A stretch of DNA of 64,000 bases from contig DKZG01000014.1 of assembly GCA_002493595.1 (NCBI GenBank), positions 609 through 64,608 on the forward strand. Direction: 5' to 3'. The position numbers and the translations under genes were made by a program. This stretch comes from Ruminococcaceae bacterium UBA7080. Its GTDB lineage: Bacteria; Bacillota; Clostridia; Oscillospirales; Acutalibacteraceae. Shown piece by piece: positions 5,363 through 54,298 of the stretch. Position 1 is the stretch's first letter, and every line of letters starts with the position of its first letter. A model generated the notes under the pieces. The model ran no database searches, had not been told where the DNA came from, and saw nothing but the letters and a program-made list of their open reading frames with translations.

Positions 5363-6925
5363 TTATCTCTTAATATCGTCCCATTTAACGCCGTTAATGT
5401 GGAAGAGATCATCAAATTTATAAACATTATGCTCTTCCTTAGTGTGGCTCGGATACCATACCTGTGCAAAGAATGGGTTAGTTTTAGCAACCTCATCATA
5501 GTTCCATTCCTTCTGAGGAATGTAGCACTCAGGACACCAGTGACCGCCAAGAAGGATAAGAGCAGGTGATGCTTCAAATTCTGCACCGCAAAGTCCGCAT
5601 TTCCACTTAAGCTTTGTAGCCATATCGCCTTTTGTCATGGTTTCACTTAAGCATTCGCCGCCACGGAATTTAGCTGCCATCTTCATGTCTTCGATATCGA
5701 GCTCAGACTCAGGCTTTGTTTCATCATAACCATGGTCAAGCTTAAACTGTTCAGCAGCACTGTTATCCTTATCAAACTTGATAATGTTGAAATCTTCCCA
5801 TTTTGTCGGAAGCTTTTCCCAATCAGCTTTTGAGCCATAGTAAGCACTCATACGAACCTTATCATCCTTAGCAGCCCAATCAAGAGTACCGAAATCAGGA
5901 GTTTGTGCAATTTTCTTCATGAATGGCTTTGCACATGCAGCAACAAGGTTCTTAGGAAGGTATCTTGGTATTTTAAAATAGAACTCAACCTGATCAGCAA
6001 GACGATTGAAATATTCCTGAACAGGGAGATTTTCACGGAAGTGAAGGAAATCTTCAAGCTTGTCACCATCAGCATAGAACTGACCATGGAAATTCTTTGT
6101 AATAAACCAATTCGGCTCGAAAAGCTTTTCAGGACCTGCAAGACCGAGTGTACCGAGAAGGAGACACTCAAATTCATAGTTAGAAATTCTGTATTCCTTA
6201 CCTGAACCGATATTAAAGAAGTGATTCCAGAAGTCAGAACCGAGATTACCTTTTTTATCTTCAAGAACAAGATTGCACATAAGTCGGCCTGAATCTTCAA
6301 CTGTACACCATTCCAGAACACCATTAATCGGTACGTGGAACATAATCGGATCCATATTCTTTAAGATGTTTGGATAAAGAATTCCGGACTGACGCATTAC
6401 AACCCAGTTTTTGATACCGCTTTCAACAAAAGTACGCTCTGCAACTGTCTTTGAAATTGCATAATGGTCATAGATAGAAATTTTAATTGGGTCACCGCAG
6501 CGTCCCCAGTGAATCGGATAGTTACGACCGCCTGTTTCAGCAACTGTACCTATGTAGCAAACCTTAACAGCATCCGGATCAGGCTGAGCAAGTACAGCCT
6601 TGCAGATACTCTGTGCAGCGCCGATATTTGTTGCCTGTGTTCTGTAAGGTTTCCAGTCAGCAGTAGGGGATACCATGCCGCCTACGTGAAGAACATAATC
6701 TGAGCCGGTTACACCCTCAAGAATTGAGTCGTAATCAGTAAGGTCACCCCAAACAATCTTTACGTTCGGCTTAGCCATAAGACCCTTTAATTTTTCTTCA
6801 TTCTTCGGACTTTTACGAGCAAGCATCTTGATGTTGATGTCGCTTGGGTGCTTGAGCATTTCCTGCACAGCAGCCCAGCCCATATTACCGGTACCGCCGG
6901 TAATAAATACGGTTTTCTTTGACAT
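5363..6925 (-). CDS. Extended SDR (NAD-dependent epimerase/dehydratase/3beta-HSD-like) with C-terminal Zn-ribbon
   Basis: Start MSKKTVF at 6925 behind AAGGAGG; TGGTGNMG Rossmann motif; YAISK (YxxxK); C-terminal RGGECLS...WKCGLCG...GHWCPEC. Confidence 0.85.
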   Translation of the reverse strand: MSKKTVFITGGTGNMGWAAVQEMLKHPSDINIKMLARKSPKNEEKLKGLMAKPNVKIVWGDLTDYDSILEGVTGSDYVLHVGGMVSPTADWKPYRTQATNIGAAQSICKAVLAQPDPDAVKVCYIGTVAETGGRNYPIHWGRCGDPIKISIYDHYAISKTVAERTFVESGIKNWVVMRQSGILYPNILKNMDPIMFHVPINGVLEWCTVEDSGRLMCNLVLEDKKGNLGSDFWNHFFNIGSGKEYRISNYEFECLLLGTLGLAGPEKLFEPNWFITKNFHGQFYADGDKLEDFLHFRENLPVQEYFNRLADQVEFYFKIPRYLPKNLVAACAKPFMKKIAQTPDFGTLDWAAKDDKVRMSAYYGSKADWEKLPTKWEDFNIIKFDKDNSAAEQFKLDHGYDETKPESELDIEDMKMAAKFRGGECLSETMTKGDMATKLKWKCGLCGAEFEASPALILLGGHWCPECYIPQKEWNYDEVAKTNPFFAQVWYPSHTKEEHNVYKFDDLFHINGVKWDDIKR

Positions 6926-6971
6926 AATTTTTCCTCCTTGATGTGCTTTCGCATAAATTACATACAACTAA

Positions 6972-10418: not shown

Positions 10419-10919
10419 TTAATCTTTTTCGGTTGTTTCTTCGTTATTTTGTTTGAATTCACCTAAAAGATCAGCTAATGATTTTTGTTTTAGCTCATCC
10501 ACACGGTCATATTTGCTGACATCTTTTTTCTCAGCCTTTTCGCCGTCCTCTTCGATAACAGTCAAAGAAAGTTCTTTTTCTGTTACACGAAATTTATATA
10601 CAATTTCTTTATTGGTGTTTGGATTTTTTAAAATCAGTTTGTTTCCGTCAAGCTCATACTCACCTGAAAAATTAGCTGTAGAAATGTATGAGTCATAAGT
10701 CATATCATCATAAAAGATATATGCAGAAAGACCGGGATTTTTTTGACTTTGCCATTTTCCTACAATCTGATCATCACTTGATGAGAATATGCTCTTGGCT
10801 GCATCTGCAGGATTTTGATCAGTAGCAATACAGTAAACACCTGCAGCGATAATAAGTGCAGCAATAACACCCACTGCAGCACCTATAATTATTTTTTGAA
10901 TTCTTGTTAATTTGGCCAT
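10419..10919 (-). CDS. Membrane-anchored hypothetical protein with small beta-rich (lipocalin-like) domain
   Basis: N-terminal TM helix, then IVGKW...GEYELDGNKLIL...; start overlaps the prs stop (TAATG). Confidence 0.6.
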   Translation of the reverse strand: MAKLTRIQKIIIGAAVGVIAALIIAAGVYCIATDQNPADAAKSIFSSSDDQIVGKWQSQKNPGLSAYIFYDDMTYDSYISTANFSGEYELDGNKLILKNPNTNKEIVYKFRVTEKELSLTVIEEDGEKAEKKDVSKYDRVDELKQKSLADLLGEFKQNNEETTEKD

Positions 10920-12103
10920 TATTTAGCCTCCTTTAATCCTTTCCTAACAAGCAGGTTTTCAATCCTGTCTGATGAGTCAAGAAGAGAAGAAACCGACATG
11001 TCGTGGTTCAGCGTATCAATAAAATATGCTGTATATTTTGAAAGCTCAACACTTACATACCATTCTCTGCTTAAAAGCTCAGGTGATTGATAAACACCGT
11101 TTGTTGTAAATACTTTGTCAAACACACCATTATTATATGCTTCATCAAATACATCAAGACCATTACAGAACAAACCAAATGTAGTGCAAACAAAAATTCT
11201 TGCACAGCCAAGCTTTTTCAGTTTGCTTGCAACCTCAAGCATGGATTCACCTGATGAAATCATATCATCAACGATGATGATATCTTTGCCTTCAACCGAA
11301 TCACCGAGATACTGGTGCTCAACAATTGGATTTCTGCCATTAACAATTCTTGTATAATCTCTTCTTTTGTAGAACATGCCAAGATTAACGCCAAGCTGAG
11401 TAGCAAAATAAATACATCTGTGCATTGCACCCTCGTCAGGTGAAATAATCATAAGGTGATCAGGATCAATCGATAAATCATCAACATTATTAGCAAGTGC
11501 TTTAATCATTTGGTATGTAGGCATAACATTTTCGAATGATTTATCCGGAATGGAATTCTGAACGCGCTGGTCATGCGCATCAAATGTAATAATATTGTCA
11601 ACGCCGAGATTTACAAGCTCCTGCAGTGCCATTGCACAGTCAAGAGATTCGCGCGAGCTTCTCTTATGCTGTCTGCCCTCATAAAGCATCGGCATAATTA
11701 CGGAAACTCTTTTTGGCTTTGATGATAATGCGTGAATGACTCTTTTTAAATCTGCAAAATGGTCATCAGGTGATTTGGGAACAGTCATTCCATACATATT
11801 ATATGTGCAGCTGTAGTTAAATACATCTGCGATAATATAAATGTCATATCCTCTTACCGTTTCTTCAATAACACCTTTTCCTTCACCGCTGCCAAAACGC
11901 GGAACGGTGACATTGATTTTATATGAGTCGCGCTGGTAACCGAAAAATGCAACATTTTCCTGATGCTCGGTTGCCTGCGTTTTTCTCCACTTAACAAGGT
12001 ATTTGTCAATTTTGTCAGTGAGCTCTTCACAACCGGGCAAACCTATAATGCCAAGCGGTCCTATTGGGATTGTATTAATGTTTTCAGCTGTTTGTCTTGC
12101 CAT
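10919..12103 (-). CDS. prs: Ribose-phosphate pyrophosphokinase (long clostridial type)
   Basis: RFGSGEGK, YEGRQHKR, SPDEG, IIVDDMISSGES PRPP-binding loop. Confidence 0.9.
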   Translation of the reverse strand: MARQTAENINTIPIGPLGIIGLPGCEELTDKIDKYLVKWRKTQATEHQENVAFFGYQRDSYKINVTVPRFGSGEGKGVIEETVRGYDIYIIADVFNYSCTYNMYGMTVPKSPDDHFADLKRVIHALSSKPKRVSVIMPMLYEGRQHKRSSRESLDCAMALQELVNLGVDNIITFDAHDQRVQNSIPDKSFENVMPTYQMIKALANNVDDLSIDPDHLMIISPDEGAMHRCIYFATQLGVNLGMFYKRRDYTRIVNGRNPIVEHQYLGDSVEGKDIIIVDDMISSGESMLEVASKLKKLGCARIFVCTTFGLFCNGLDVFDEAYNNGVFDKVFTTNGVYQSPELLSREWYVSVELSKYTAYFIDTLNHDMSVSSLLDSSDRIENLLVRKGLKEAK

Positions 12104-12159: not shown

Positions 12160-12188
12160 ATTTTACAACAAATGCTTATTATTGTAAA
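12160..12188 (-). promoter_or_regulatory. sigmaA promoter of prs
   Basis: TTTACA-N17-TAAAAT. Confidence 0.55.
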
Positions 12189-12242: not shown

Positions 12243-15200
12243 TCACAAATTGATTGGGTTTTTCCTTCTTCTTACAAAAACTATATATGCGCAAATTCCT
12301 GCAGCACTTGCAGCAGAAATAATGATGCCGTAATTAAAACCGCGCGGCTGATAAACATATTCAATTGTATGCTCACCCGGCTTGACGGAAGCAGCAAGCA
12401 TTGCCTCGCCAACCTCATAGGTTTCAGTTTTTTCTCCGTCAATCAGAATAGACCAGCCCTTATCATAAGGTATTGATGAATATAAAACACTGTTTTCTTT
12501 AACCGTGATTTTTCCGGATATTTTTGTATCACTGTGCGAGGTAACATTCAGTGATGCAGCTTTGAGTTTTTCAAAACCTTTCTTTAATATATTTTCATCA
12601 ACTGTATAAGCATATATCTCAGCATATGTTTCGTTTGTTTCTATGTTTGAACAGTCGAGGGATACCTTAATCTCTTCATCTTTTTCGCAATAGCCCAAAT
12701 CAAGAATATATGGTTCATCTATCGGCTGAGTGAAAGCATTATAATGATTGCTGTTAATCTCAATATTTTCTATATCAGGAGATGTAACATAAAGGTAAGC
12801 GTTTCCTGCTTTTTCAGGAGAAATCGTAAAACTTACATTTCCATATCCCTCATCCGAACTGTTTTTATTAAACCAGTAAGTGCCGTTATTCATTATTTCT
12901 TCACCGGACAGACCGTCAAATTCGGTGGAGGTATAATTCATTTCATTAAAAATTCCGCTATAGCCTGTTGCACGTGTAAAATAATCAGACTGAACGTCAA
13001 AGGGATTTCCTTCTTCGGTAACCCAGTTGTTTATTTCATTATTAACTGCAAATGCAATGGGGAGAAAATATTTGTTTTCGTAAATTTCGGTTTCACCGTC
13101 TGCAACAGAAGAGTGATAAACATAAAAACTTTCGCCGGGCGCAATACTTGAAGGTGCCTTAATAAGATATTTGAGATTAAACATCATATTATAAACAGGC
13201 GTTTGTGTATTATAGGTATAGCTGTTTATTCTGTTGCCGAACATGCCCAGGCTGTATTGCAGCTGTGAATAATTTTCATAAGCCATTGAAGAAAATACAG
13301 ACATTCCGTTATACGCATAGTAACTCGGATCCATCCTTGTTTCAAGGTAAGTAAGCTCCTCGCGATATAAATCGTCATCCGATGAATGTATTTTTTCTAT
13401 CGCCTGTGTATAAGCAGCGTAATTGTTTTTATAATCTGTATTTGCCTGGGAAATGGATATAGAACCGGTATCTGCAATCAATACTTCACTGAAAACGAGC
13501 GCACAGGCAAGTGCAGATATGACCGCTTTATCAAGCTTGCCTTTTTTATAAATGAACAAAAAGGCTGTCCATAGAATAATAAATGCAATGCTGATGTATA
13601 TTGTTGTCTCAGACATTTTTGTAGTTGACATTTTTTGAGCAACAATGATAAAGAATATCCATGCCATTGCAGCAAAACCAACATCTCTAATATCAATGGA
13701 CCTGAATTTCGTAATACATTTATAACCGCAGATAAGAAGGATAAAAGTGTACATATATGAAAATCTAAATGGCAGATCATTCGGAAAATGAAATGCATGC
13801 CAAATAAAATTAAGACAATTATTGTCAAAGCTGAACAGGAAAAACAGCAGCATGAGAATATATGCGCCTTTTTCTTTTAACCTTATATCTTTATTAATAA
13901 CGAACAACGGCAGAAGAATGATTGAAAGCATACCTGAATATACATTCGGAAGTACGTCGTCACCGCTGCTTCGGATCGTTGTTTCAAGTCCTGCCAGATG
14001 TGATGTTATGAAATCAAATATATTGAAGTAGGAAGTAAAGGTTTTAGGAAAATCGTCAGAAGTAGCAGAGCTTGATGTCAGTATCATAAACACAGGTACA
14101 AGCACTACTGCACATAGGCCTGCCGCTGCGATGCTGCTTAAAGCAAATCTTACACCGCGGTTGAAAAACTTGTTATTCATCAAAGCTTTGAATGAATATT
14201 TTTTTCTAAATACCAAGGAATGATCGATTTTATGGTTGCCGTTTGATGATATAACGTAATAGCATAAAAAGTATATCACTGCAAATATGCAGCTCATAAA
14301 GCCCATATAGTAACTGGAAACAAATAAAAGCACAAGACTTATAATATAAGTTGCAGATTTGCCGTTATTAATAATTCTTTCAATGCCCAGTGCAATAACA
14401 GGCAGAAGTATCATACCCTCGAGCCACATAACATTCCAGTAATATGCCAAAAAATAGGCACTAAACGCATAAAAAACGCCGAATACCGAGCATAATGGCG
14501 TATGCTTTTTTTGTGATGCCTTCAGGTAGTAGGCAAAGGTTACGGCACTTAATATACATTTAATTGAAACAATAAACGAAATAGCGAAAGAAATATCCTC
14601 TTTATCAAATAAGAAAATCAGTGCCGAAAGAGGACTGGAGAGATAATTGAAATAGTTGCCCAAAAAACTGCTTCCGCCGCCGGAAAACCATGAGTACAAA
14701 AAGCTTTGGTGATTCACTATTCTTTCATAAAGCTCTGCAAAAAGCGGGCCGTACTGATGATAAAGGTCCATGCGCATAACAGTATAATCGCCGAAGGGGA
14801 AAACAGTATATATTATATAAATAATAGATATGCATAATGCTGTTATTGCACCGCTGAGCAAAACAAATCTGTTGTTATAGAAAATAAGATAGGTTTTGGA
14901 ATATTTGATGCTTGATGCTTGATATGCACAGTCAAAGAGTATGAGCCTGTCAAAAAAATAATTGAAGAAAAAGGATATGGAGAGAGCGACTAACCACACA
15001 AAGCCGTCAGACATTTTCAGCATATTGCCGAAAGAGACTTCTGATAATTTATAAAAACCAAAGTTTACTGCTCCCCTGAAAACGAGCATAAGGACTTGCT
15101 TTAAATCAGTGGACAATACATTTTTTGAAAAAACAAATTTTCTTTCCAAAAGATATAACACAATTTCAGCGGCTATAAATGCTGCTAAGACCGATACGGA

Positions 15201-15347
15201 TGCCGAAACGCCCAAAAAAACTTTAAGAATCTGTTTGACAGAAGTCAGTAAAAAAACAGAGAAAAGCGCAGCTAAAGTATAGCTTACTGTTTCTCCGTTA
15301 AATATCTTGTTTGTTTTAACGTTGTTCTTATACTCAGAAAAATTCAT
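12243..15347 (-). CDS. GtrA-like domain fused to YfhO-family (GT-C) polytopic membrane glycosyltransferase
   Basis: First ~140 aa have the 4-TM GtrA pattern (LERKFVF...FFNYFFDRLILF); remainder has YfhO features PFGD...MDLYHQY, GSSFLGNYFNYLSSP, FPNDLPFRFSY, SVFSSM, SIPYDKGW...DG, HTIEYVYQPRG. Confidence 0.85.
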   Translation of the reverse strand: MNFSEYKNNVKTNKIFNGETVSYTLAALFSVFLLTSVKQILKVFLGVSASVSVLAAFIAAEIVLYLLERKFVFSKNVLSTDLKQVLMLVFRGAVNFGFYKLSEVSFGNMLKMSDGFVWLVALSISFFFNYFFDRLILFDCAYQASSIKYSKTYLIFYNNRFVLLSGAITALCISIIYIIYTVFPFGDYTVMRMDLYHQYGPLFAELYERIVNHQSFLYSWFSGGGSSFLGNYFNYLSSPLSALIFLFDKEDISFAISFIVSIKCILSAVTFAYYLKASQKKHTPLCSVFGVFYAFSAYFLAYYWNVMWLEGMILLPVIALGIERIINNGKSATYIISLVLLFVSSYYMGFMSCIFAVIYFLCYYVISSNGNHKIDHSLVFRKKYSFKALMNNKFFNRGVRFALSSIAAAGLCAVVLVPVFMILTSSSATSDDFPKTFTSYFNIFDFITSHLAGLETTIRSSGDDVLPNVYSGMLSIILLPLFVINKDIRLKEKGAYILMLLFFLFSFDNNCLNFIWHAFHFPNDLPFRFSYMYTFILLICGYKCITKFRSIDIRDVGFAAMAWIFFIIVAQKMSTTKMSETTIYISIAFIILWTAFLFIYKKGKLDKAVISALACALVFSEVLIADTGSISISQANTDYKNNYAAYTQAIEKIHSSDDDLYREELTYLETRMDPSYYAYNGMSVFSSMAYENYSQLQYSLGMFGNRINSYTYNTQTPVYNMMFNLKYLIKAPSSIAPGESFYVYHSSVADGETEIYENKYFLPIAFAVNNEINNWVTEEGNPFDVQSDYFTRATGYSGIFNEMNYTSTEFDGLSGEEIMNNGTYWFNKNSSDEGYGNVSFTISPEKAGNAYLYVTSPDIENIEINSNHYNAFTQPIDEPYILDLGYCEKDEEIKVSLDCSNIETNETYAEIYAYTVDENILKKGFEKLKAASLNVTSHSDTKISGKITVKENSVLYSSIPYDKGWSILIDGEKTETYEVGEAMLAASVKPGEHTIEYVYQPRGFNYGIIISAASAAGICAYIVFVRRRKNPINL

Positions 15348-15383
15348 TATTTCACCAAATTATCATAATTTTATATCATCTAT

Positions 15384-15412
15384 ATAATAGCATACGGTCA
15401 TTAAATCTTCAA
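15384..15412 (-). promoter_or_regulatory. sigmaA promoter of the GtrA-YfhO gene
   Basis: TTGAAG-N17-TATTAT with TG extension. Confidence 0.6.
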
Positions 15413-15466: not shown

Positions 15467-16450
15467 TTGTTGGACAATATATCATTTTTCATATCACTTT
15501 TTCCAAAATATCTTTCTGATATTTTCAGCTGCTTTGAGAACAGCATCATCAGTCGTATTACCGAAATAAGGATCAGGAGAAATAAACCGATTATGATTTA
15601 CCTGAAAAATACGCCTTATTTCATAAGTGTTTCCGGAAGACTGATTGAAAGGTATTGCGATCATTGTGTAGCTATTGATGATGAGAATTTTGATTTTATT
15701 ACAGACAGGCTTTGCAATCATTCTTTTCATACGAATATGCATTCGATGATAGATGGTTATATTACTGCCAAAAATGGTTCAAGAGTCGGTATCAGCGCCA
15801 CAGCAGTTTATAAGGATGGAAATATTCATTCCGTTCGGGATATCAGCAGCATAAATATAAGAATTGCAGCGCAGCACAGAAATTGTGCTTCTGAAGTATT
15901 AAAGCTTTTATATTCCAATACAATTCCAAGTATCATTGTTGCAGGTCCTGTGATGTCGGGCAAAACAACTTTTCTTCGCGATTTATCCCGCCAGCTTTCA
16001 AGCGGATTTGCCGGTAAATACCGAAAGGTTGCAATTACTGATGAAAGAAAAGAAATTGCCTCAGGGTTTGATGTGGGATTAAATACAGATGTCCTATACT
16101 CGTACGATAAAGCTAAAGCGATTGAAATTGCAACAAGAACGCTTTCACCTGATATTATAGTGTGCGACGAAATCGGAAATATGAATGAATTGGAAGCTAT
16201 TCAGTACGGTTTTTCAACAGGAGTCAGCTTTGCTGTATCCGTGCATATGAAAGAACGCCGACAGCTTACAGAAAATAAGATTGTGTCACGCTTGATTTTG
16301 ACAGGTGAGTTTGATTATATTGTGCTTCTTAAATCTTTTACAGATGAATTTGAAATTATTGATTTGAGGTCATCAGAAAGTGAAAACAGCAGGAATAATA
16401 ATGATTATCCTTTTTTCTTCCTCCCTTGGGTTGGCAGTGGCGGGATTTAA
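15467..16450 (+). CDS. spoIIIAA: Stage III sporulation protein AA (ATPase)
   Basis: EIRIRRNKP, GSRVGIS, SINIRIA, GPVMSGKTTFLRDL, DERKEIA, RTLSPDIIVCDEIG. Confidence 0.92.
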   Translation: MLDNISFFISLFPKYLSDIFSCFENSIISRITEIRIRRNKPIMIYLKNTPYFISVSGRLIERYCDHCVAIDDENFDFITDRLCNHSFHTNMHSMIDGYITAKNGSRVGISATAVYKDGNIHSVRDISSINIRIAAQHRNCASEVLKLLYSNTIPSIIVAGPVMSGKTTFLRDLSRQLSSGFAGKYRKVAITDERKEIASGFDVGLNTDVLYSYDKAKAIEIATRTLSPDIIVCDEIGNMNELEAIQYGFSTGVSFAVSVHMKERRQLTENKIVSRLILTGEFDYIVLLKSFTDEFEIIDLRSSESENSRNNNDYPFFFLPWVGSGGI

Positions 16451-16823
16451 AAAAAAGCAGATTAAATATATTGACAGCTTAATTTATATTGCCGAAAAGA
16501 TTCTTCTAATGCTCAGCAGCATTTCACCTGAAACAGAAGATATTATGAACGAGCTGAAAAACGATGAAAGACTGAAAGGCTTTGATTTTGGATTAAAGAA
16601 TGAGAATTCACCATTGCCGCCTGAGGAAAATGACAGGTCACGTTTGTTGTTTAATACTCTTGGCAAGTACGATTTAGACTGTCAAATAAGCTACATAAAT
16701 CAATATTTAGGATATTTTAAAATGCTAAGACAGCAGTATCAGGATTACTATAACAGCCACTATAAGCTGTATCTTGTTTTTGGAGTTTTTATAGGAATAC
16801 TTGTTTCGGTTTTACTGATATAG
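16380..16823 (+). CDS. spoIIIAB: Stage III sporulation protein AB
   Basis: Operon position; N- and C-terminal TMs; LGKYDLDCQI...KLYLVFGVFIG. Confidence 0.8.
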   Translation: MKTAGIIMIILFSSSLGLAVAGFKKKQIKYIDSLIYIAEKILLMLSSISPETEDIMNELKNDERLKGFDFGLKNENSPLPPEENDRSRLLFNTLGKYDLDCQISYINQYLGYFKMLRQQYQDYYNSHYKLYLVFGVFIGILVSVLLI

Positions 16824-16845
16824 TGCAGTGTTAACGGGAGGATAA

Positions 16846-17040
16846 ATGGAAGTTGATTTTATTTTTAAAATTGCAGCAATCGGAATAATTGTGGCGGTTT
16901 TGAATACGGTTTTAATAAGAAGCGGAAGAGAAGAACAGGCCATGCTGACAACTCTTGCAGGTGTTATTGTAGTTTTAATGATGCTTGTTCCTGAAATAAG
17001 TGATTTATTCTCAACCGTTAAGTCGTTGTTTGATCTATGA
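16846..17040 (+). CDS. spoIIIAC: Stage III sporulation protein AC
   Basis: IFKIAAIGIIVAVLNTVLIRSGREEQAMLTTLAG. Confidence 0.95.
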   Translation: MEVDFIFKIAAIGIIVAVLNTVLIRSGREEQAMLTTLAGVIVVLMMLVPEISDLFSTVKSLFDL

Positions 17041-17417
17041 TAAAGCTTGCGGGATTTATAATTATTTCTCTTTTACTTATTATTTTTTTAAAAGAGGCGA
17101 AAAGAGAATTTGCCATGGTTCTTACTCTAGGGTGTGCAATTGTTTTATTTGCTGCCGTGGCAGATGATTTTATTAATATATTACATAATGTATATAATTT
17201 ATCGTCAGGGCTAAAAAACATCAATGCGTATATTTCACTGATGATAAAGATTTTGGGAATATCTCTTGTGGCACAGTTTGTTGTGGATTTATGTCGCGAT
17301 GCCGGTGAAAATGCGCTCGCATCGCAGACTGAAATTGCTTCAAAAATAATCATTCTTATAATGACAATGCCGCTTTTTGAGACGGTGCTAAATATTGTTA
17401 CAGGACTTTTGAAATGA
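17037..17417 (+). CDS. spoIIIAD: Stage III sporulation protein AD
   Basis: IKILGISLVAQF..DLCRDAGENALASQTE..SKI. Confidence 0.93.
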   Translation: MIKLAGFIIISLLLIIFLKEAKREFAMVLTLGCAIVLFAAVADDFINILHNVYNLSSGLKNINAYISLMIKILGISLVAQFVVDLCRDAGENALASQTEIASKIIILIMTMPLFETVLNIVTGLLK

Positions 17418-18538
17418 AAAGAATTTTAATTATTTTATCGGTGTTGCTTATAATACCAAACACATTTTGCTTTGCAGCTGAAAAAAGCGAATACGAGGAG
17501 TATCTCGGCTCTTTTGACTTAAGCTCATTTGAACTGCTTGATAATGATACAAAGAATTTTTTGGATACTTTGGGGATACTTGACTTTGATTATGAAAATC
17601 TCTCGGATATTTCTATCAAAAGCGTTTTCGAGCATATCTGGAATATCATAACACAAAAGTCCGATGGGCCTATAAAAACAGGTATTATTGTAATTGTATT
17701 TATTTTGCTGGCTTCTTTTTTTCGCTCTTTCTCTACTGAAATTAATAAAAGTGATTTAACAGAAACCTTTTCCACTGTATCCACACTTATTATTTCCATA
17801 TTTCTTACATATAATTTAACGGATTGTATTGCACTTTGCTGCTCAACCATTAAGCTTTGCTCTGATTTTTCTTTTGCTTTTTTTCCGGCCTTTTGTATCA
17901 TTGTATCTACATCCGGTGCAGCTATGACATCTTTTTCGGTTAATACGACTCTGCTTATTCTTGCACAGTCACTTAATTATATATCCGAGCTTATTTTTAT
18001 TCCGATAACAAATTGTTTTCTTGCACTTGGAATATGTTCCGGAATACGCCGCGAGCTTAATTTGAGCGGAACAATCAATATGTTAAAGAAGTTGATAACA
18101 ACAGCTATTTCTACTGTATCGGCAATATTTGTTTCCATACTCTCTGTTAAAACAGCTGTTGCCTCTAAAGCCGATGCCCTTGGTCTTCGTTCGGTAAGAT
18201 TTGCAATCAACTCTGTTGTACCGGTAATCGGAAGCTCAATAAGTGAAGGGCTTCTTTCAATACAGAGCTATTCAAGCTTGATAAAGACGAGTGTCGGCGT
18301 TGTTGGCATTATTGCTGTAATATCAATATTTCTGCCTTCTCTGATAGAAATAAATCTTTGGCGTTTTGTGTTGTCGCTGTCATCCTTGTGCGGCGAAATA
18401 TTCGGTGACCGGTCATCTGTTAAGGCAGTAGAAACCTTTAAGGATGCTTTATTGATTATTGATGTGCTTTTAATTTTGACAATGGTAACAACAATCATAT
18501 CAATAGGTATACTGGTTGCGGCAAAGTCGGGGTCTTAA
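17414..18538 (+). CDS. spoIIIAE: Stage III sporulation protein AE
   Basis: Polytopic membrane protein; RFAINSVVPVIGSSISE; operon position. Confidence 0.88.
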   Translation: MKRILIILSVLLIIPNTFCFAAEKSEYEEYLGSFDLSSFELLDNDTKNFLDTLGILDFDYENLSDISIKSVFEHIWNIITQKSDGPIKTGIIVIVFILLASFFRSFSTEINKSDLTETFSTVSTLIISIFLTYNLTDCIALCCSTIKLCSDFSFAFFPAFCIIVSTSGAAMTSFSVNTTLLILAQSLNYISELIFIPITNCFLALGICSGIRRELNLSGTINMLKKLITTAISTVSAIFVSILSVKTAVASKADALGLRSVRFAINSVVPVIGSSISEGLLSIQSYSSLIKTSVGVVGIIAVISIFLPSLIEINLWRFVLSLSSLCGEIFGDRSSVKAVETFKDALLIIDVLLILTMVTTIISIGILVAAKSGS

Positions 18539-18976
18539 ATGGAATTTTTAAAAGAATGGACTTTAACCATCTGTATTACTTTAGTCATTTCAGTGATATT
18601 TTCAGTGCTTACGCCTAAAGGGAATATGGGCAAATTTTTTAAAATAATACTTGCAACGTTTATTTTTCTCTCATTTATCTATCCGTTTAAAAGTGATGAA
18701 ATTGATTTTTCATTTCCGGAATTTTCTGCTGAAGAGCTTGCTCAAGAGCAAAAAGATACATATGAGAAGACCGTTACAGCGCAGACTTTGCAGGCACTCG
18801 AAAGTCAAGGTTATAAATCCTGCAGCGTAAAGAGCAGAATTTCATTAAAAGATAATGAAATTCTAATTAAAAGTCTTACAATAACAGCTCCCGACAGCTA
18901 CAACAAAGATGAAATAAAAAAGTATATTTTTGATACGTTGGGAATTAACGCAGAGGTGTATTATCTTGGAGAATAA
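18539..18976 (+). CDS. spoIIIAF: Stage III sporulation protein AF
   Basis: LTPKGNMGKFFKIIL..F..L...P; operon position. Confidence 0.8.
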   Translation: MEFLKEWTLTICITLVISVIFSVLTPKGNMGKFFKIILATFIFLSFIYPFKSDEIDFSFPEFSAEELAQEQKDTYEKTVTAQTLQALESQGYKSCSVKSRISLKDNEILIKSLTITAPDSYNKDEIKKYIFDTLGINAEVYYLGE

Positions 18977-19493
18977 AATAAAGGAAAGATTAAAGAGCTT
19001 TATTTCAGGTGACAGCAAAAAAATTAAGATAATTGTTGCCGTAGGATTAATCGGTATGATTTTGATTTTTGCATCGGATTTGTTTGCCAAAGATGAAAAA
19101 AAGCAGGACGCCTCAAATGAAAGCATAAGCTATGAAGAATATACGCAAGAGCTTGAAAATAAGCTTGTACAGCTGATTTCATCGATAAGCGGAGTGGGTG
19201 AATGCCGTGTAATGATAACGCTTGAAAATACTGCCGAAAGTGTTTATGCTACAGATGTTGAAGTGAAAAATGATGATGAGACCCTTAATCAAAAGGATAA
19301 ATATGTTATTTATAATTCCGATAAAGGAGAGGCCCCTGTACTTATAAAAGAATTTTTGCCTAAGGTGCAGGGTGTTACGGTTGTCTGCACAGGTGGTGAC
19401 AATATTGCAGTGAAGGAAAAAATAATTGAAGCCGTTACCTCTTTATTTAATATACCAACAAACAGAGTATCTGTTTCAAAAATAAAAGCATAA
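18966..19493 (+). CDS. spoIIIAG: Stage III sporulation protein AG
   Basis: TTG start 7 nt after GAGGTG; LENKL..LISSISGVGECRVMITL, PKVQGVTVVCTGGD, LFNIPTNRVSV. Confidence 0.92.
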   Translation: MENKIKERLKSFISGDSKKIKIIVAVGLIGMILIFASDLFAKDEKKQDASNESISYEEYTQELENKLVQLISSISGVGECRVMITLENTAESVYATDVEVKNDDETLNQKDKYVIYNSDKGEAPVLIKEFLPKVQGVTVVCTGGDNIAVKEKIIEAVTSLFNIPTNRVSVSKIKA

Positions 19494-19504
19494 AGGTGAT
19501 AAAA

Positions 19505-20113
19505 ATGAGTAAAAACAAAATGAGCAAAGAAAAAAAGGAAAAAACAATATTAAATGAAAATGATATTTATAAAAAGAAGTCAAGAAAGACCAAAATAGCT
19601 ATTTCCTGCTTCATACTTCTGCTTGGTGTCGGTGTTATGGGCAATTGGTATTGGGAAAACAGCGATTTGTCTAATAAAGTCAGTACCATTTCAGGTGCGA
19701 AAGAAAAAATACTCGGCGAAGCTACTTATGTTGATGCAACAACCGAACCTGCAAAAGAAAGCCAATATTTTTCAAATGCCAGAGTTGACAGACAAAAAGC
19801 CAGAGATGAAAGTCTTGAAAAACTGCAGAAAATCTTAGATGCTTCTTCACAAAGTGATGCAGCAAAAAAAGAAGCTACGAAGAAAATCGCCGATATTTCC
19901 GATATGATTAATAAGGAAAATAAAATTGAAACACTTGTAACTGCGAAAGGCGTTAAAAACTGCATAGCAGTAATTAACGAAAATTCTAAAAAAGTGGATA
20001 TAATAGTAGAAGCAGAAGAGCTGTCAGATACGGTAATACTTCAGATTAAAGAAATTGCGACAGGGCAGCTTGGCTGTTCATATGAGGATGTAACAATTAT
20101 TCAGTCAAAATAA
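19505..20113 (+). CDS. spoIIIAH: Stage III sporulation protein AH
   Basis: TM anchor; YFSNARVDRQKARDE, IETLVTAKG..NCIA; last gene of the operon. Confidence 0.88.
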   Translation: MSKNKMSKEKKEKTILNENDIYKKKSRKTKIAISCFILLLGVGVMGNWYWENSDLSNKVSTISGAKEKILGEATYVDATTEPAKESQYFSNARVDRQKARDESLEKLQKILDASSQSDAAKKEATKKIADISDMINKENKIETLVTAKGVKNCIAVINENSKKVDIIVEAEELSDTVILQIKEIATGQLGCSYEDVTIIQSK

Positions 20114-33353: not shown

Positions 33354-34190
33354 ATGAAAGAGTTCAGAAAAAAACAAAAACGTCTTTACGCTTTTATGAA
33401 GGCACTGATTATAGTTGCTGCTATTTGTATTTTTATTTTTATAGGAATTAAACCTGCAGTTGCACAAGTAAGTACGGTCGCTGTAATGGTATGCAATTAT
33501 ACTTGTGATTTTTTGATTCTATCGGCAATGGCAGTTCTTTTTATCTATTATTCAAAATATGGAAAGAGTGATGCATTTTTAACTTCTGTTGAAAATGAGC
33601 TTTCGGATGCCGGATACTATCTTACATCACGTGCAGAAAATACACAGAATGATTATGTAAATGCAGTTATACTTGATTTACAAAACTGCGGATATTCTGT
33701 TAATCGGAATGTAGAAATTAATGAGCTTGAATTTGATTTTAAAGCTGAGAACAGAAAAGAATTTTTTTACTGCATAAAAACCGATAATGCAGATAAAAAT
33801 GATATTCTTGCTTATCTGGATTCTGTTATTTATGATATAACGGTAAAAAACCTGAAGCGAAAAGGCAATGCTGTAATTTGCTTTGTAACAGATAAAGCTG
33901 AGGACGAAGCCATTGCATTAAGTAAAATGATTACACCGCTTGGTAAAAAGGAGCAAATTAAAATTGCTGTTGCTGTTTGTGAGTTATCCAGCAGAAGAGT
34001 TTATTTTCTCGGTAATATTAAAACAAAGTGCCAGCAGATGATTGCTAATTTTGTCATGAACTGTGATGTGCCGATTAAAGAACAGTACATAGGCAAAGAG
34101 AGGCTGCCCTTTCAGGTTGAACTGGAAGAGCATATGAAATCTTTTAATATTAAAGATTTTAAAGCCGGCAATTTTTATGCACATGAATAA
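33354..34190 (+). CDS. Hypothetical protein: 2 N-terminal TM helices + restriction-endonuclease-like fold domain
   Basis: Two hydrophobic helices, then DLQNCGYSVNRNVEINELEFDFKAE...FFYCIK. Good spacing and RBS between ligA and murD. Fold call by eye only. Confidence 0.6.
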   Translation: MKEFRKKQKRLYAFMKALIIVAAICIFIFIGIKPAVAQVSTVAVMVCNYTCDFLILSAMAVLFIYYSKYGKSDAFLTSVENELSDAGYYLTSRAENTQNDYVNAVILDLQNCGYSVNRNVEINELEFDFKAENRKEFFYCIKTDNADKNDILAYLDSVIYDITVKNLKRKGNAVICFVTDKAEDEAIALSKMITPLGKKEQIKIAVAVCELSSRRVYFLGNIKTKCQQMIANFVMNCDVPIKEQYIGKERLPFQVELEEHMKSFNIKDFKAGNFYAHE

Positions 34191-52695: not shown

Positions 52696-53670
52696 ATGAG
52701 AAAAGAAGAATTTATATACTTACCTAAACTTGTACAGCAATATCTTGTATATATCGAAGCAATCAAGGGGCACAGCAAATTATCTGTAATTGAATACGCC
52801 TCTGATTTGAGGACCTTTTTCAGATATATGGCTAAAAACAAAGGATTATGCAGCAGCGATACACCGGATGAAAAAATTGATCTATCCCCTATTGATTTAG
52901 ATTTTATACAGAGTGTAAATCTTACAGATGCATATCAATTTTTAATTTATTGCAAAGATGTACGTAATAACAGCGAGGCTACACGTTCAAGGCGAGTGAT
53001 TGCAGTACGCCGATTTTATAATTATCTATCAGAAAATCTTGGATTAATAGATAAAAACCCTTTAAAAAATCTTGATGCACCTAAAATGAAAAAATCCTTG
53101 CCCAAATATCTAACCCTTGAAGAATCGGAGAGATTGTTATCTGTAATCGATGGCAGGCATAAAGAACGTGACTATGCAATTGTTACTCTGTTTTTAAATT
53201 GCGGTATGCGTTTGAGTGAACTTGTTGCAATAGATTATAATGATATTAAGGATGATGGTTCGATTGTAATTACCGGAAAAGGCAACAAAGAGAGAATTGT
53301 GTATCTCAACCAAGCTTGTATCGATGCTGTCATAAAGTATATAAAAGTCAGACCAAACGATGGTGTAAAAGACAGAGCTTTATTTCTCAGCTCCAGAAAT
53401 AAACGGATAAGCCCTAAAACTGTACAGCATATGGTGTATGGATATCTTGAGAAAGCAGGACTTGGAGACAGAGGTTTATCTGTTCATAAGCTCAGGCATA
53501 CAGCAGCAACTTTGATGTATCAGCATGGCAATGTTGATTTGTTGCTGCTTAAAGAAATACTCGGTCACGAAAATCTCGGAACTACAGAAATTTATACGCA
53601 CATAAATGATGAAGCAACGCGTAAAGCGATACAATCCAATCCGCTCGCAAAGGAAAAACCTAAATGGTAA
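52696..53670 (+). CDS. Chromosomal tyrosine recombinase, XerC-annotated / XerS-like clostridial type
   Basis: Catalytic R (CGMRLSEL), K (TGKGNKER), HKLRH, LGH, Y (TEIYTH). No mobile-element neighbours. Confidence 0.9.
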   Translation: MRKEEFIYLPKLVQQYLVYIEAIKGHSKLSVIEYASDLRTFFRYMAKNKGLCSSDTPDEKIDLSPIDLDFIQSVNLTDAYQFLIYCKDVRNNSEATRSRRVIAVRRFYNYLSENLGLIDKNPLKNLDAPKMKKSLPKYLTLEESERLLSVIDGRHKERDYAIVTLFLNCGMRLSELVAIDYNDIKDDGSIVITGKGNKERIVYLNQACIDAVIKYIKVRPNDGVKDRALFLSSRNKRISPKTVQHMVYGYLEKAGLGDRGLSVHKLRHTAATLMYQHGNVDLLLLKEILGHENLGTTEIYTHINDEATRKAIQSNPLAKEKPKW

Positions 53671-54298
53671 CCACGGGAAATAATAGATTGGTCAGCAAAG
53701 CTTCAAAGAATGCAGCGACTGCAATGCCAAAAGCTAAAAGCAAGTATTTTTTTACATATGGTTTGACATTTAATTCGTTATTCTCAATACTGTTTTTAGT
53801 CGCTTTTACCAATGCTTTTGATAATTCACTGCTTATTTTAATTGTTAAGGCAATTACAGTCAAAAATAATGCTATATACGGGACAATCATCACAAGTGAA
53901 TAACCTACACCTTTAGCTGAGTAATTGACGAACAGATATGCTGTTCTAATACCGGTAACAATTCCTATTACAGTGGGTATAATATTTATAATAGGGTATC
54001 CTATTAAACAAAAACCCAGAAAAACTATGATTAAATATAATGAAAAATAGACACAAAAATCAGATATAAAAGAATTTAATATACTTTGATTTTCAGGCTT
54101 TAGCAGTGCATTTAATGCTTCTGTTGCAGATATTTTATAAAAATATGTACCTATAAAGAGACCGAAAGAATAGAAAAGTGCTGTATAAATAATAGACTTA
54201 TATTCATTAAAAATTTTTCCTATTTCGATTTTACGCTCTTCTTGCGCGTCAAACGCATTATCTTCATCTTCAAATAATGCAATTTTTTCATCTTCCAT
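53660..54298 (-). CDS. spoIIM: SpoIIM-like polytopic membrane protein
   Basis: LGFCLIGYPII..IP..IG..TG..TAYL..YSAKG...VP...AAFFEA pattern of SpoIIM. Confidence 0.65.
   Translation of the reverse strand: MEDEKIALFEDEDNAFDAQEERKIEIGKIFNEYKSIIYTALFYSFGLFIGTYFYKISATEALNALLKPENQSILNSFISDFCVYFSLYLIIVFLGFCLIGYPIINIIPTVIGIVTGIRTAYLFVNYSAKGVGYSLVMIVPYIALFLTVIALTIKISSELSKALVKATKNSIENNELNVKPYVKKYLLLAFGIAVAAFFEALLTNLLFPVVTI

Follow-up and report, generated by a model that had tools for sequence, protein, structure and literature searches.

Within a 64,000-nucleotide stretch of the genome of Ruminococcaceae bacterium UBA7080 (contig DKZG01000014.1, forward-strand positions 609 to 64,608; hereafter the window), we identified a gene that encodes, in one polypeptide, a four-helix membrane module of the GtrA/DPMS type (residues ~18–138; DPMS, dolichol-phosphate mannose synthase), a connector (residues 139–159), and a complete YfhO glycosyltransferase of the GT-C class (residues 160–1034). 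This in-frame joining of a GtrA-type module to a complete YfhO protein, put forward in the original prediction for the locus, was confirmed by Pfam, by the N-terminal domains of 20 orthologs, by AlphaFold2 (AF2) modeling, by Foldseek, and by a hidden Markov model (HMM) built from stand-alone GtrA proteins. The gene occupies a minus-strand open reading frame (ORF) in the ORF list, 12243..15347, that opens with ATG and encodes 1,034 amino acids (115 kDa). The coordinates first proposed were exact, no internal stop interrupts the frame at the junction or elsewhere, and both motifs that had been singled out are present: ERKFVF at residues 68–73 and DRLILF at residues 133–138 (14934..14951, minus strand). 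Full-length homologs measure 1,030–1,050 amino acids and are 55–99% identical, and the AF2 model of the full-length protein has a predicted local distance difference test score (pLDDT) of 74 and a predicted template modeling score (pTM) of 0.75. The three-component scheme against which the gene had been interpreted, comprising a GT2 enzyme, a GtrA-family protein, and a GT-C transferase, had been correctly described (PMC7389260, PMC5836110, PMC8035078) and is backed by the literature (PMC7389260, PMC8035078).

Features of the fusion gene, with the evidence for each:
12243..15347, minus strand: whole ORF, GtrA module, connector, and YfhO GT-C glycosyltransferase (ORF list, homologs, AF2)
14934..15296, minus strand: GtrA/DPMS-type four-helix membrane module, residues 18–138 (PF04138, orthologs, AF2, PDB neighbors, codon bias)
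15129..15146, minus strand: motif ERKFVF following the second transmembrane (TM) helix, residues 68–73 (invariant columns E68, V72, F73)
14934..14963, minus strand: motif NYFFDRLILF at the end of TM4, residues 129–138 (invariant columns Y130, R134, F138; N129 kept in 90% or more of sequences)
14871..14933, minus strand: cytoplasmic connector, residues 139–159, beginning DCAY and containing two short helices (invariant columns, AF2)
12246..14870, minus strand: YfhO-type GT-C glycosyltransferase, residues 160–1034 (PF09586, Foldseek)
14733..14798, minus strand: external loop 1, bearing the presumed catalytic motif PFGDYTVMRMDLYHQYGPLFAE, residues 184–205 (invariant columns)
12348..13175, minus strand: extracytoplasmic beta-sandwich region resembling carbohydrate-binding modules (CBMs), residues ~725–1000 (AF2, Foldseek)
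12261..12344, minus strand: C-terminal transmembrane helix, residues 1002–1029 (AF2; hydropathy segment 1007–1025)
15352..15356, minus strand: ribosome-binding site GGTGA, 4 nucleotides upstream of the ATG at 15347 (sequence; kept in 8 of 10 aligned orthologs)
15384..15412, minus strand: sigma-A-type promoter, TTGAAG and TG-extended TATTAT separated by a 17-nucleotide spacer (consensus scan; predicted function)

The GtrA-type module and the YfhO glycosyltransferase

At the level of the ortholog family, sequence comparison makes the GtrA assignment solid. PF04138 (GtrA_DPMS_TM) is matched by each of the 20 aligned ortholog N-terminal domains (N-domains), with a best E value of 4.4e-11, and precomputed annotation places PF09586 and PF04138 together on most full-length homologs. 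The HMM scan that the original prediction called for gave a clear match for the family and for the YfhO part, and a sub-threshold one for the window copy. When residues 1–166 of the latter were scanned alone, PF04138 aligned to residues 25–138 (profile positions 4–117 of 117) with 20.6 bits (E=5.5e-4), below the Pfam gathering cut-off of 26.1 bits; PF04138 was absent from the Pfam results for the full-length protein, and the domain surfaces only from the isolated N terminus.

To more distant sequences the link is again made by profiles. Searching 1.84 billion representative proteins with the N-domain profile, without a word index, yielded 79 matches, among them fused proteins and fragments. 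Eight matches were scanned with Pfam; these included stand-alone proteins of 150–160 amino acids, one of 264 amino acids, and VanZ-similar proteins of ~300 amino acids, with PF04138 E values of 1e-19 to 1e-28. An HMM made from stand-alone GtrA proteins only matched every fused ortholog and recognized the window N terminus at E=3.5e-16, a value that is optimistic because the seeds were picked by their similarity to the N-domain profile. The word-indexed protein search with the same profile returned almost only fragments of these same fused proteins, and a profile search against PDB sequences returned no match. The ~300-amino-acid proteins (P0145, P0151, and P0153) are the nearest other architecture with a similar GtrA domain; there the domain is C-terminal, and in two of these three the N-terminal region weakly resembles VanZ, at scores below threshold.

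When aligned jointly with stand-alone GtrA proteins, the module is collinear with them from end to end, and the motifs ...FVF and N[YF]xxx[KR]xxxF fall in register. ERKFVF aligns with the NxKFxF-type motif of stand-alone GtrA proteins, including that of E. coli. Comparison of the N-domain profile with E. coli K-12 GtrA (YfdG) by hhalign gave a weak local match of 28 residues near the post-TM2 motif (E 0.089), which places window E68 opposite an Asn of the E. coli protein and is useful for motif register, not as evidence of homology. R91 and N129, each present in at least 90% of orthologs, and R134, present in all, line up with the Arg, Asn, and Lys/Arg that stand-alone GtrA proteins conserve. 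Two residues of L. monocytogenes GtcA, R95 and N132, are essential (PMC7389260), and the alignment to stand-alone GtrA proteins, made without a GtcA sequence, suggests that R91 and N129 may be their equivalents.

The predicted structure of the module is the same whether modeled in the full-length protein (pLDDT 74) or as an isolated domain (pLDDT 78), with helices at residues 18–45, 49–71, 81–108, and 114–137. Against 350,542 PDB chains, the isolated-domain fold placed entries of the Pyrococcus furiosus type III DPMS (PfDPMS; 9ep0, 5mlz, and 5mm1) at ranks 1, 2, and 5; these were the only matches with a probability above 0.8 (0.82–0.92), with TM-scores of 0.42–0.50 over ~120 columns and E values of 0.8–2.8, which are not statistically significant. 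PfDPMS is the sole PF04138 member with a solved structure. Lys and Arg are enriched in the N-terminal tail, the TM2–TM3 loop, and the connector, and the TM1–TM2 and TM3–TM4 loops are short. The module is accordingly predicted to form two hairpins with both termini in the cytoplasm, which is also the accepted topology of GtrA proteins (PMC8035078). The connector is modeled with helices at 144–147 and 151–158; its positions D139, C140, Y142, A144, and F156 are invariant, as is R160 at the start of the YfhO part, and from approximately residue 148 onward it resembles the ancestral YfhO N-terminal tail.

The remainder of the protein carries an essentially full-length PF09586 match (residues 168–1011, profile positions 4–835 of 835; 519 bits, E=3.4e-155). 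Foldseek matched the GT-C core to AftD 6wby (E 4e-7), ArnT 5ezm, and AftA 8if8. Among NCBIfam models, the best matches were the streptococcal proteins PgfM1 (NF047589) and PgfM2 (NF047590), at 258 and 228 bits; since these scores lie far below the equivalog cut-offs of 1500 and 1400, we regard the protein as a member of the YfhO family and not as a Pgf ortholog. The source names derived from NCBI for the fused proteins read simply "YfhO family protein."

TM1 of the YfhO part spans residues 160–182. The loop that follows it is net acidic and contains PFGDYTVMRMDLYHQYGPLFAE, with D194 invariant and D187 found in 90% or more of the sequences; general knowledge of GT-C enzymes leads us to presume a catalytic role for this motif. 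GT-C transferases as a rule carry a catalytic acidic residue in the first external loop (PMC8035078), and the arrangement of module and loop fits both this rule and GtrA topology. Farther along, the ectodomain region ~725–1000 is rich in beta strands in the AF2 model and matches CBM6, CBM29, and CBM35 modules in Foldseek; as modeled, it is probably an acceptor-binding domain, and the predicted C-terminal helix re-anchors it in the membrane.

Integrity, origin, and neighborhood of the fusion gene

The fusion is preserved in one frame in ~40 independent assemblies, including that of the cultured organism Eubacterium coprostanoligenes ATCC 51222 (locus L023). Contigs that come from separate studies, of mouse gut and of rat gut, cross both the start and the junction with zero indels, and a variant that is 98.5% identical differs by substitutions only. 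Between the window and its orthologs, substitutions in the codons for residues 12–140 favor the third position (33/18/71 over codon positions 1/2/3 against the ortholog at locus L004), and this pattern is that of the YfhO core; amino-acid identity is 0.71 for the N-domain and 0.70 for the ectodomain. As judged from these alignments, the N-domain is under purifying selection. In the sequencing-run search, only DNA metagenomes held the fusion sequence well; one wastewater RNA run held 12% of its words.

Conservation likewise identifies the annotated ATG as the site from which translation evidently begins. M1 is conserved, and the ortholog alignment contains no conserved Met between it and the catalytic loop. 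Across 10 orthologous intergenic regions, the –35 element TTGAA(G/C) and the –10 element of the predicted promoter are kept and the sequence of the spacer varies.

Our scan of relatives, with one genome per species, returned 80 loci that fall into two sets. Proteins at least 45% identical to the query are fused. The second set (L045–L083, from metagenome-assembled genomes [MAGs] of Acutalibacteraceae/Oscillospirales) is 41–45% identical over residues ~155–1030 and shares the catalytic loop motif; unlike the window protein, its members lack residues 1–~145 and are not followed by prs, and no GtrA gene lies within 10 kb of them. The N-terminal tail of these proteins is short and aligns with window residues ~148–165; the piece that was added therefore corresponds to residues 1–~145. 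A neighbor-joining tree built on the YfhO portion groups the fused proteins into a single clade, within which the only exceptions are L037, on a 5′-truncated contig, and L040, and this monophyly points to a single fusion event. The fusion is thus kept in ~40 genomes as one clade; the original prediction had noted neither this conservation from a single origin, nor the unfused positional orthologs, nor the sub-threshold Pfam score of the window copy. By these sequence comparisons, the fusion arose once, in a clade of Eubacterium coprostanoligenes-like bacteria, when ~145 residues were added to the N terminus of a YfhO protein whose gene already stood beside the spoIIIA operon. In the MAG RUG14311, a TAA (L040:379-381) replaces the codon equivalent to D133 and parts the GtrA module from YfhO; this could be an isolated nonsense variant, a real split, a pseudogene, or a sequencing error.

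The spoIIIAA–AH operon (15467–20113, plus strand) adjoins the gene divergently, and in the upstream flanks of L004–L083 this arrangement recurs at nearly every fused locus and at roughly three quarters of the unfused ones. Because both sets are divergent from spoIIIAA, we consider them positional orthologs, and the pairing has been kept despite only ~40% protein identity between the two clades. The yfhO-type gene and spoIIIAA share 119 bp of intergenic DNA with back-to-back promoters, in which a conserved CATAGA on the spoIIIAA side is presumably a sigma-E-type –10 element. Sporulation-specific expression of the fusion gene is unsupported, as its own promoter is sigma-A-like and the CATAGA element lies on the spoIIIAA side. 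The lasting pairing of yfhO with spoIIIA may nonetheless mean that the enzyme takes part in glycosylating the envelope in connection with sporulation.

Downstream, prs, a DUF5640 gene, spoIIID, and proC are found in the fused clade only. The prs gene, encoding phosphoribosyl pyrophosphate (PRPP) synthetase (10919–12103, minus strand), begins 140 bp beyond the fusion gene on the same strand; the interval between the two genes has a promoter-like site (12188..12160) and no predicted terminator. This adjacency may be no more than the synteny of a housekeeping gene, or it may point to a donor derived from PRPP. The start of the next gene overlaps the prs stop; it encodes a 166-amino-acid protein (10419–10919, minus strand) that has a membrane anchor at its N terminus and is weakly similar to DUF5640, and its synteny with prs and spoIIID is kept across the fused clade.

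Proposed mechanism and alternatives

In characterized systems, the GtrA-family component (GtrA, GtcA, or CflA) is a separate small protein that is often common to several GT-A/GT-C pairs and is thought to dimerize (PMC8035078). The CsbB–GtcA–YfhO systems of B. subtilis and S. aureus as well as L. monocytogenes resemble the fusion in pairing a GtrA-family four-TM protein with a YfhO-family GT-C that has a large ectodomain (PMC8035078), and in the presumed use, outside the membrane, of a sugar donor linked to undecaprenyl phosphate (C55-P). They differ in that GtcA is a separate protein of ~15 kDa, and B. subtilis has a csbB–yfhO operon, whereas no csbB-like GT2 gene is adjacent here. PgfM1 and PgfM2 of S. 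mutans, which act in YfhO-type protein O-glycosylation, belong to the same YfhO family and score highest among NCBIfam models for the GT-C part; they are not orthologous, and the matches are confined to the YfhO part (from residue ~161). Covalent attachment of a GtrA-type domain has its nearest precedent in the archaeal type III DPMS. In PfDPMS (5MLZ, 5MM1, 9EP0), a PF04138 four-helix domain is likewise joined to a polyprenyl-phosphate-sugar glycosyltransferase, but there the module is C-terminal and its partner a cytoplasmic GT-A synthase, whereas here the module is N-terminal and its partner an extracytoplasmic GT-C consumer. Crystallography of PfDPMS indicates that its GtrA-like domain may flip the enzyme's own product, a precedent for action in cis; the polar-pocket residues of DPMS are reported to be absent from GtrA proteins (PMC12992685).

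We propose, with moderate confidence, that the fusion protein flips and transfers a lipid-linked sugar in cis. A synthase at the cytoplasmic face, encoded elsewhere in the genome, would place the sugar on C55-P; the GtrA module would bind and translocate the resulting C55-P-sugar and hand it over in cis to the GT-C active site; and the GT-C part would move the sugar to an envelope polymer (a teichoic acid or secondary wall polysaccharide) or to a surface protein held by the CBM-like ectodomain. Fusion would set a 1:1 stoichiometry and reserve the module for one transferase. The original prediction had described a flippase fused to its transferase and a channeling of the sugar between them; its architecture stands, and we retain "flippase" and "channeling" as conditional terms. 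A stronger version, which we find doubtful, is a self-contained machine in which a single GtrA module, without a GtrA partner, would open laterally into the donor groove of the GT-C part and pass on the lipid-linked sugar directly. If true, it would mean that GtrA proteins act through direct physical coupling to their transferase.

Several observations count against the cis mechanism. Flippase activity has never been demonstrated biochemically for any GtrA protein (PMC5836110, PMC11127046). The window copy taken alone lies below the curated PF04138 threshold, the structural matches to PfDPMS lack significance, and the hhalign match to YfdG is weak. No GT2 donor synthase was found among the 30 window ORFs scanned with Pfam, and neither a GT2 nor a UbiA-type donor synthase lies within 10 kb in fused or unfused relatives; with no donor synthase in the window or in these flanks, the pathway context is missing. 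That the GT2 partner would be outside the window had been anticipated, and the window also holds no other suitable polytopic membrane protein. Besides the fusion protein, three of its ORFs have at least two hydrophobic segments, encoding SpoIIIAE, a SpoIIM-like protein, and an amidase; there is therefore no UbiA-type synthase in the window. Genes for such synthases can stand at other sites in the genome, as the GtcA gene does in Listeria and Bacillus, so the mechanism is compatible with this gap.

The main rival is a live alternative that we consider possible, if on balance unlikely. It holds that the module only binds polyprenyl phosphate, anchors, or scaffolds, recruiting the donor or the donor-making enzyme, and that another protein (a stand-alone GtrA or one of the Wzx or MATE type) carries out translocation. 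Precedents for such a role come from three systems: the flippase function of mycobacterial Rv3789 has been challenged (Kolly 2015, as cited in PMC12992685), a GtrA-like Pseudomonas protein has been proposed to act as hub in a glycosylation complex that includes a GT-C enzyme (bioRxiv 10.1101/2020.04.19.049825), and the homologous domain of PfDPMS mainly anchors the enzyme and binds dolichyl phosphate (PMC12992685). The module itself has an invariant E68 where E. coli GtrA has Asn and stand-alone GtrA proteins have varied residues, and the unfused orthologs evidently function without a module in cis. Against a purely binding or scaffolding role, the module retains R91, N129, and R134, which are typical of stand-alone GtrA proteins, and is as conserved as the ectodomain. 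Moreover, a search that covered the window and the 10-kb flanks of each locus found no second GtrA gene.

The position of prs raises a very unlikely alternative, namely that the donor is a PRPP-derived polyprenyl-phospho-pentofuranose, as in mycobacterial arabinan synthesis and a Citrobacter three-component system. Besides the presence of prs downstream in essentially all fused loci and its absence there from unfused ones, this reading draws on the best structural neighbors of the GT-C core, the arabinofuranosyltransferases AftD and AftA, on the service of the GtrA protein Rv3789 in the mycobacterial arabinan pathway (PMC11127046), and on Kelly et al. 2024, which also prompted it. Yet prs is 76–94% identical across genomes, as a housekeeping gene would be; the window encodes no UbiA-type phosphoribose synthase or other polytopic candidate; and the AftD and AftA matches reflect only the common GT-C fold. 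In sequence the protein belongs to the YfhO family, of which the characterized members use C55-P-N-acetylglucosamine (PMC8035078). Given the housekeeping-like prs and the lack of a UbiA-type synthase, we set this reading aside as a main explanation.

That faulty sequencing or assembly, or a misplaced start, joins a small gtrA to yfhO, or that the N-terminal region is an untranslated leader, is effectively excluded: the sub-threshold Pfam score of the window copy and the in-frame TAA of one relative, L040, would suit an artifact, but the single open frame of ~40 independent assemblies, the indel-free mouse and rat contigs, the third-codon-position bias, the conserved M1, ribosome-binding site, and promoter, and the lack of a conserved Met between residue 1 and the catalytic loop all oppose it.

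Other genes of the window and its relatives may bear on donor and acceptor. Approximately 5 kb from the fusion gene, a 534-amino-acid protein (5363–6967, minus strand) combines an N-terminal NAD-dependent epimerase/dehydratase domain with a long, unassigned C-terminal half. A similar gene encoding 520 amino acids lies near the L002 ortholog; the 534-amino-acid protein is a conceivable supplier of sugar nucleotide, comparable to PgfE in S. mutans. At the locus of a relative (L001:16201-21698), a dlt-like set located 3 kb past proC includes an MBOAT protein, an AMP-binding enzyme, a 318-amino-acid protein, a gene resembling ornithine/diaminopimelate decarboxylases, and a 77-amino-acid protein of carrier-protein size without a Pfam match. 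The set is absent from the window; its occurrence suggests teichoic-acid-type polymers in the group. Elsewhere in the window, a 278-amino-acid ORF (33354–34190, plus strand) flanked by ligA and a Mur-ligase-like gene matches nothing in Pfam at E<=0.001, and a tyrosine recombinase of the phage-integrase family (XerC/D-like; 52696–53670, plus strand) converges on a SpoIIM-like protein with three TM helices (53660–54298, minus strand), with an 11-bp overlap.

Implications for GtrA function

GtrA-family proteins are small (~15 kDa) and hard to study, and they have been named flippases for ~25 years without biochemical proof. The fusion described here is visible in domain annotations, and so is not hidden, yet it seems to have gone unexamined; our literature search found no description of a GtrA–YfhO or GtrA–GT-C fusion. 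Fusion of pathway partners will not astonish a specialist, and its value is that it makes GtrA function, and contact with the transferase, more directly testable. A conserved natural fusion of single origin constitutes "Rosetta-stone" evidence for physical contact between GtrA and GT-C, with a stoichiometry of 1:1, and contrasts with the current picture of one GtrA protein serving several transferases. It complements a 2026 proposal that the homologous archaeal DPMS domain flips the product of its fused synthase (PMC12992685).

At 115 kDa, the fusion is a better structural target than a GtrA protein of ~15 kDa and suits genetic comparison of full-length and split versions, and a version exists in the cultured E. 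coprostanoligenes ATCC 51222. Whether Rv3789 is a flippase or a scaffold is in dispute; should the module of the fusion prove dispensable or non-flipping, this too would inform the debate between scaffold and flippase. For the organisms themselves, the biological target of the fusion would be a surface glycan of abundant Clostridia of the rodent and ruminant gut.

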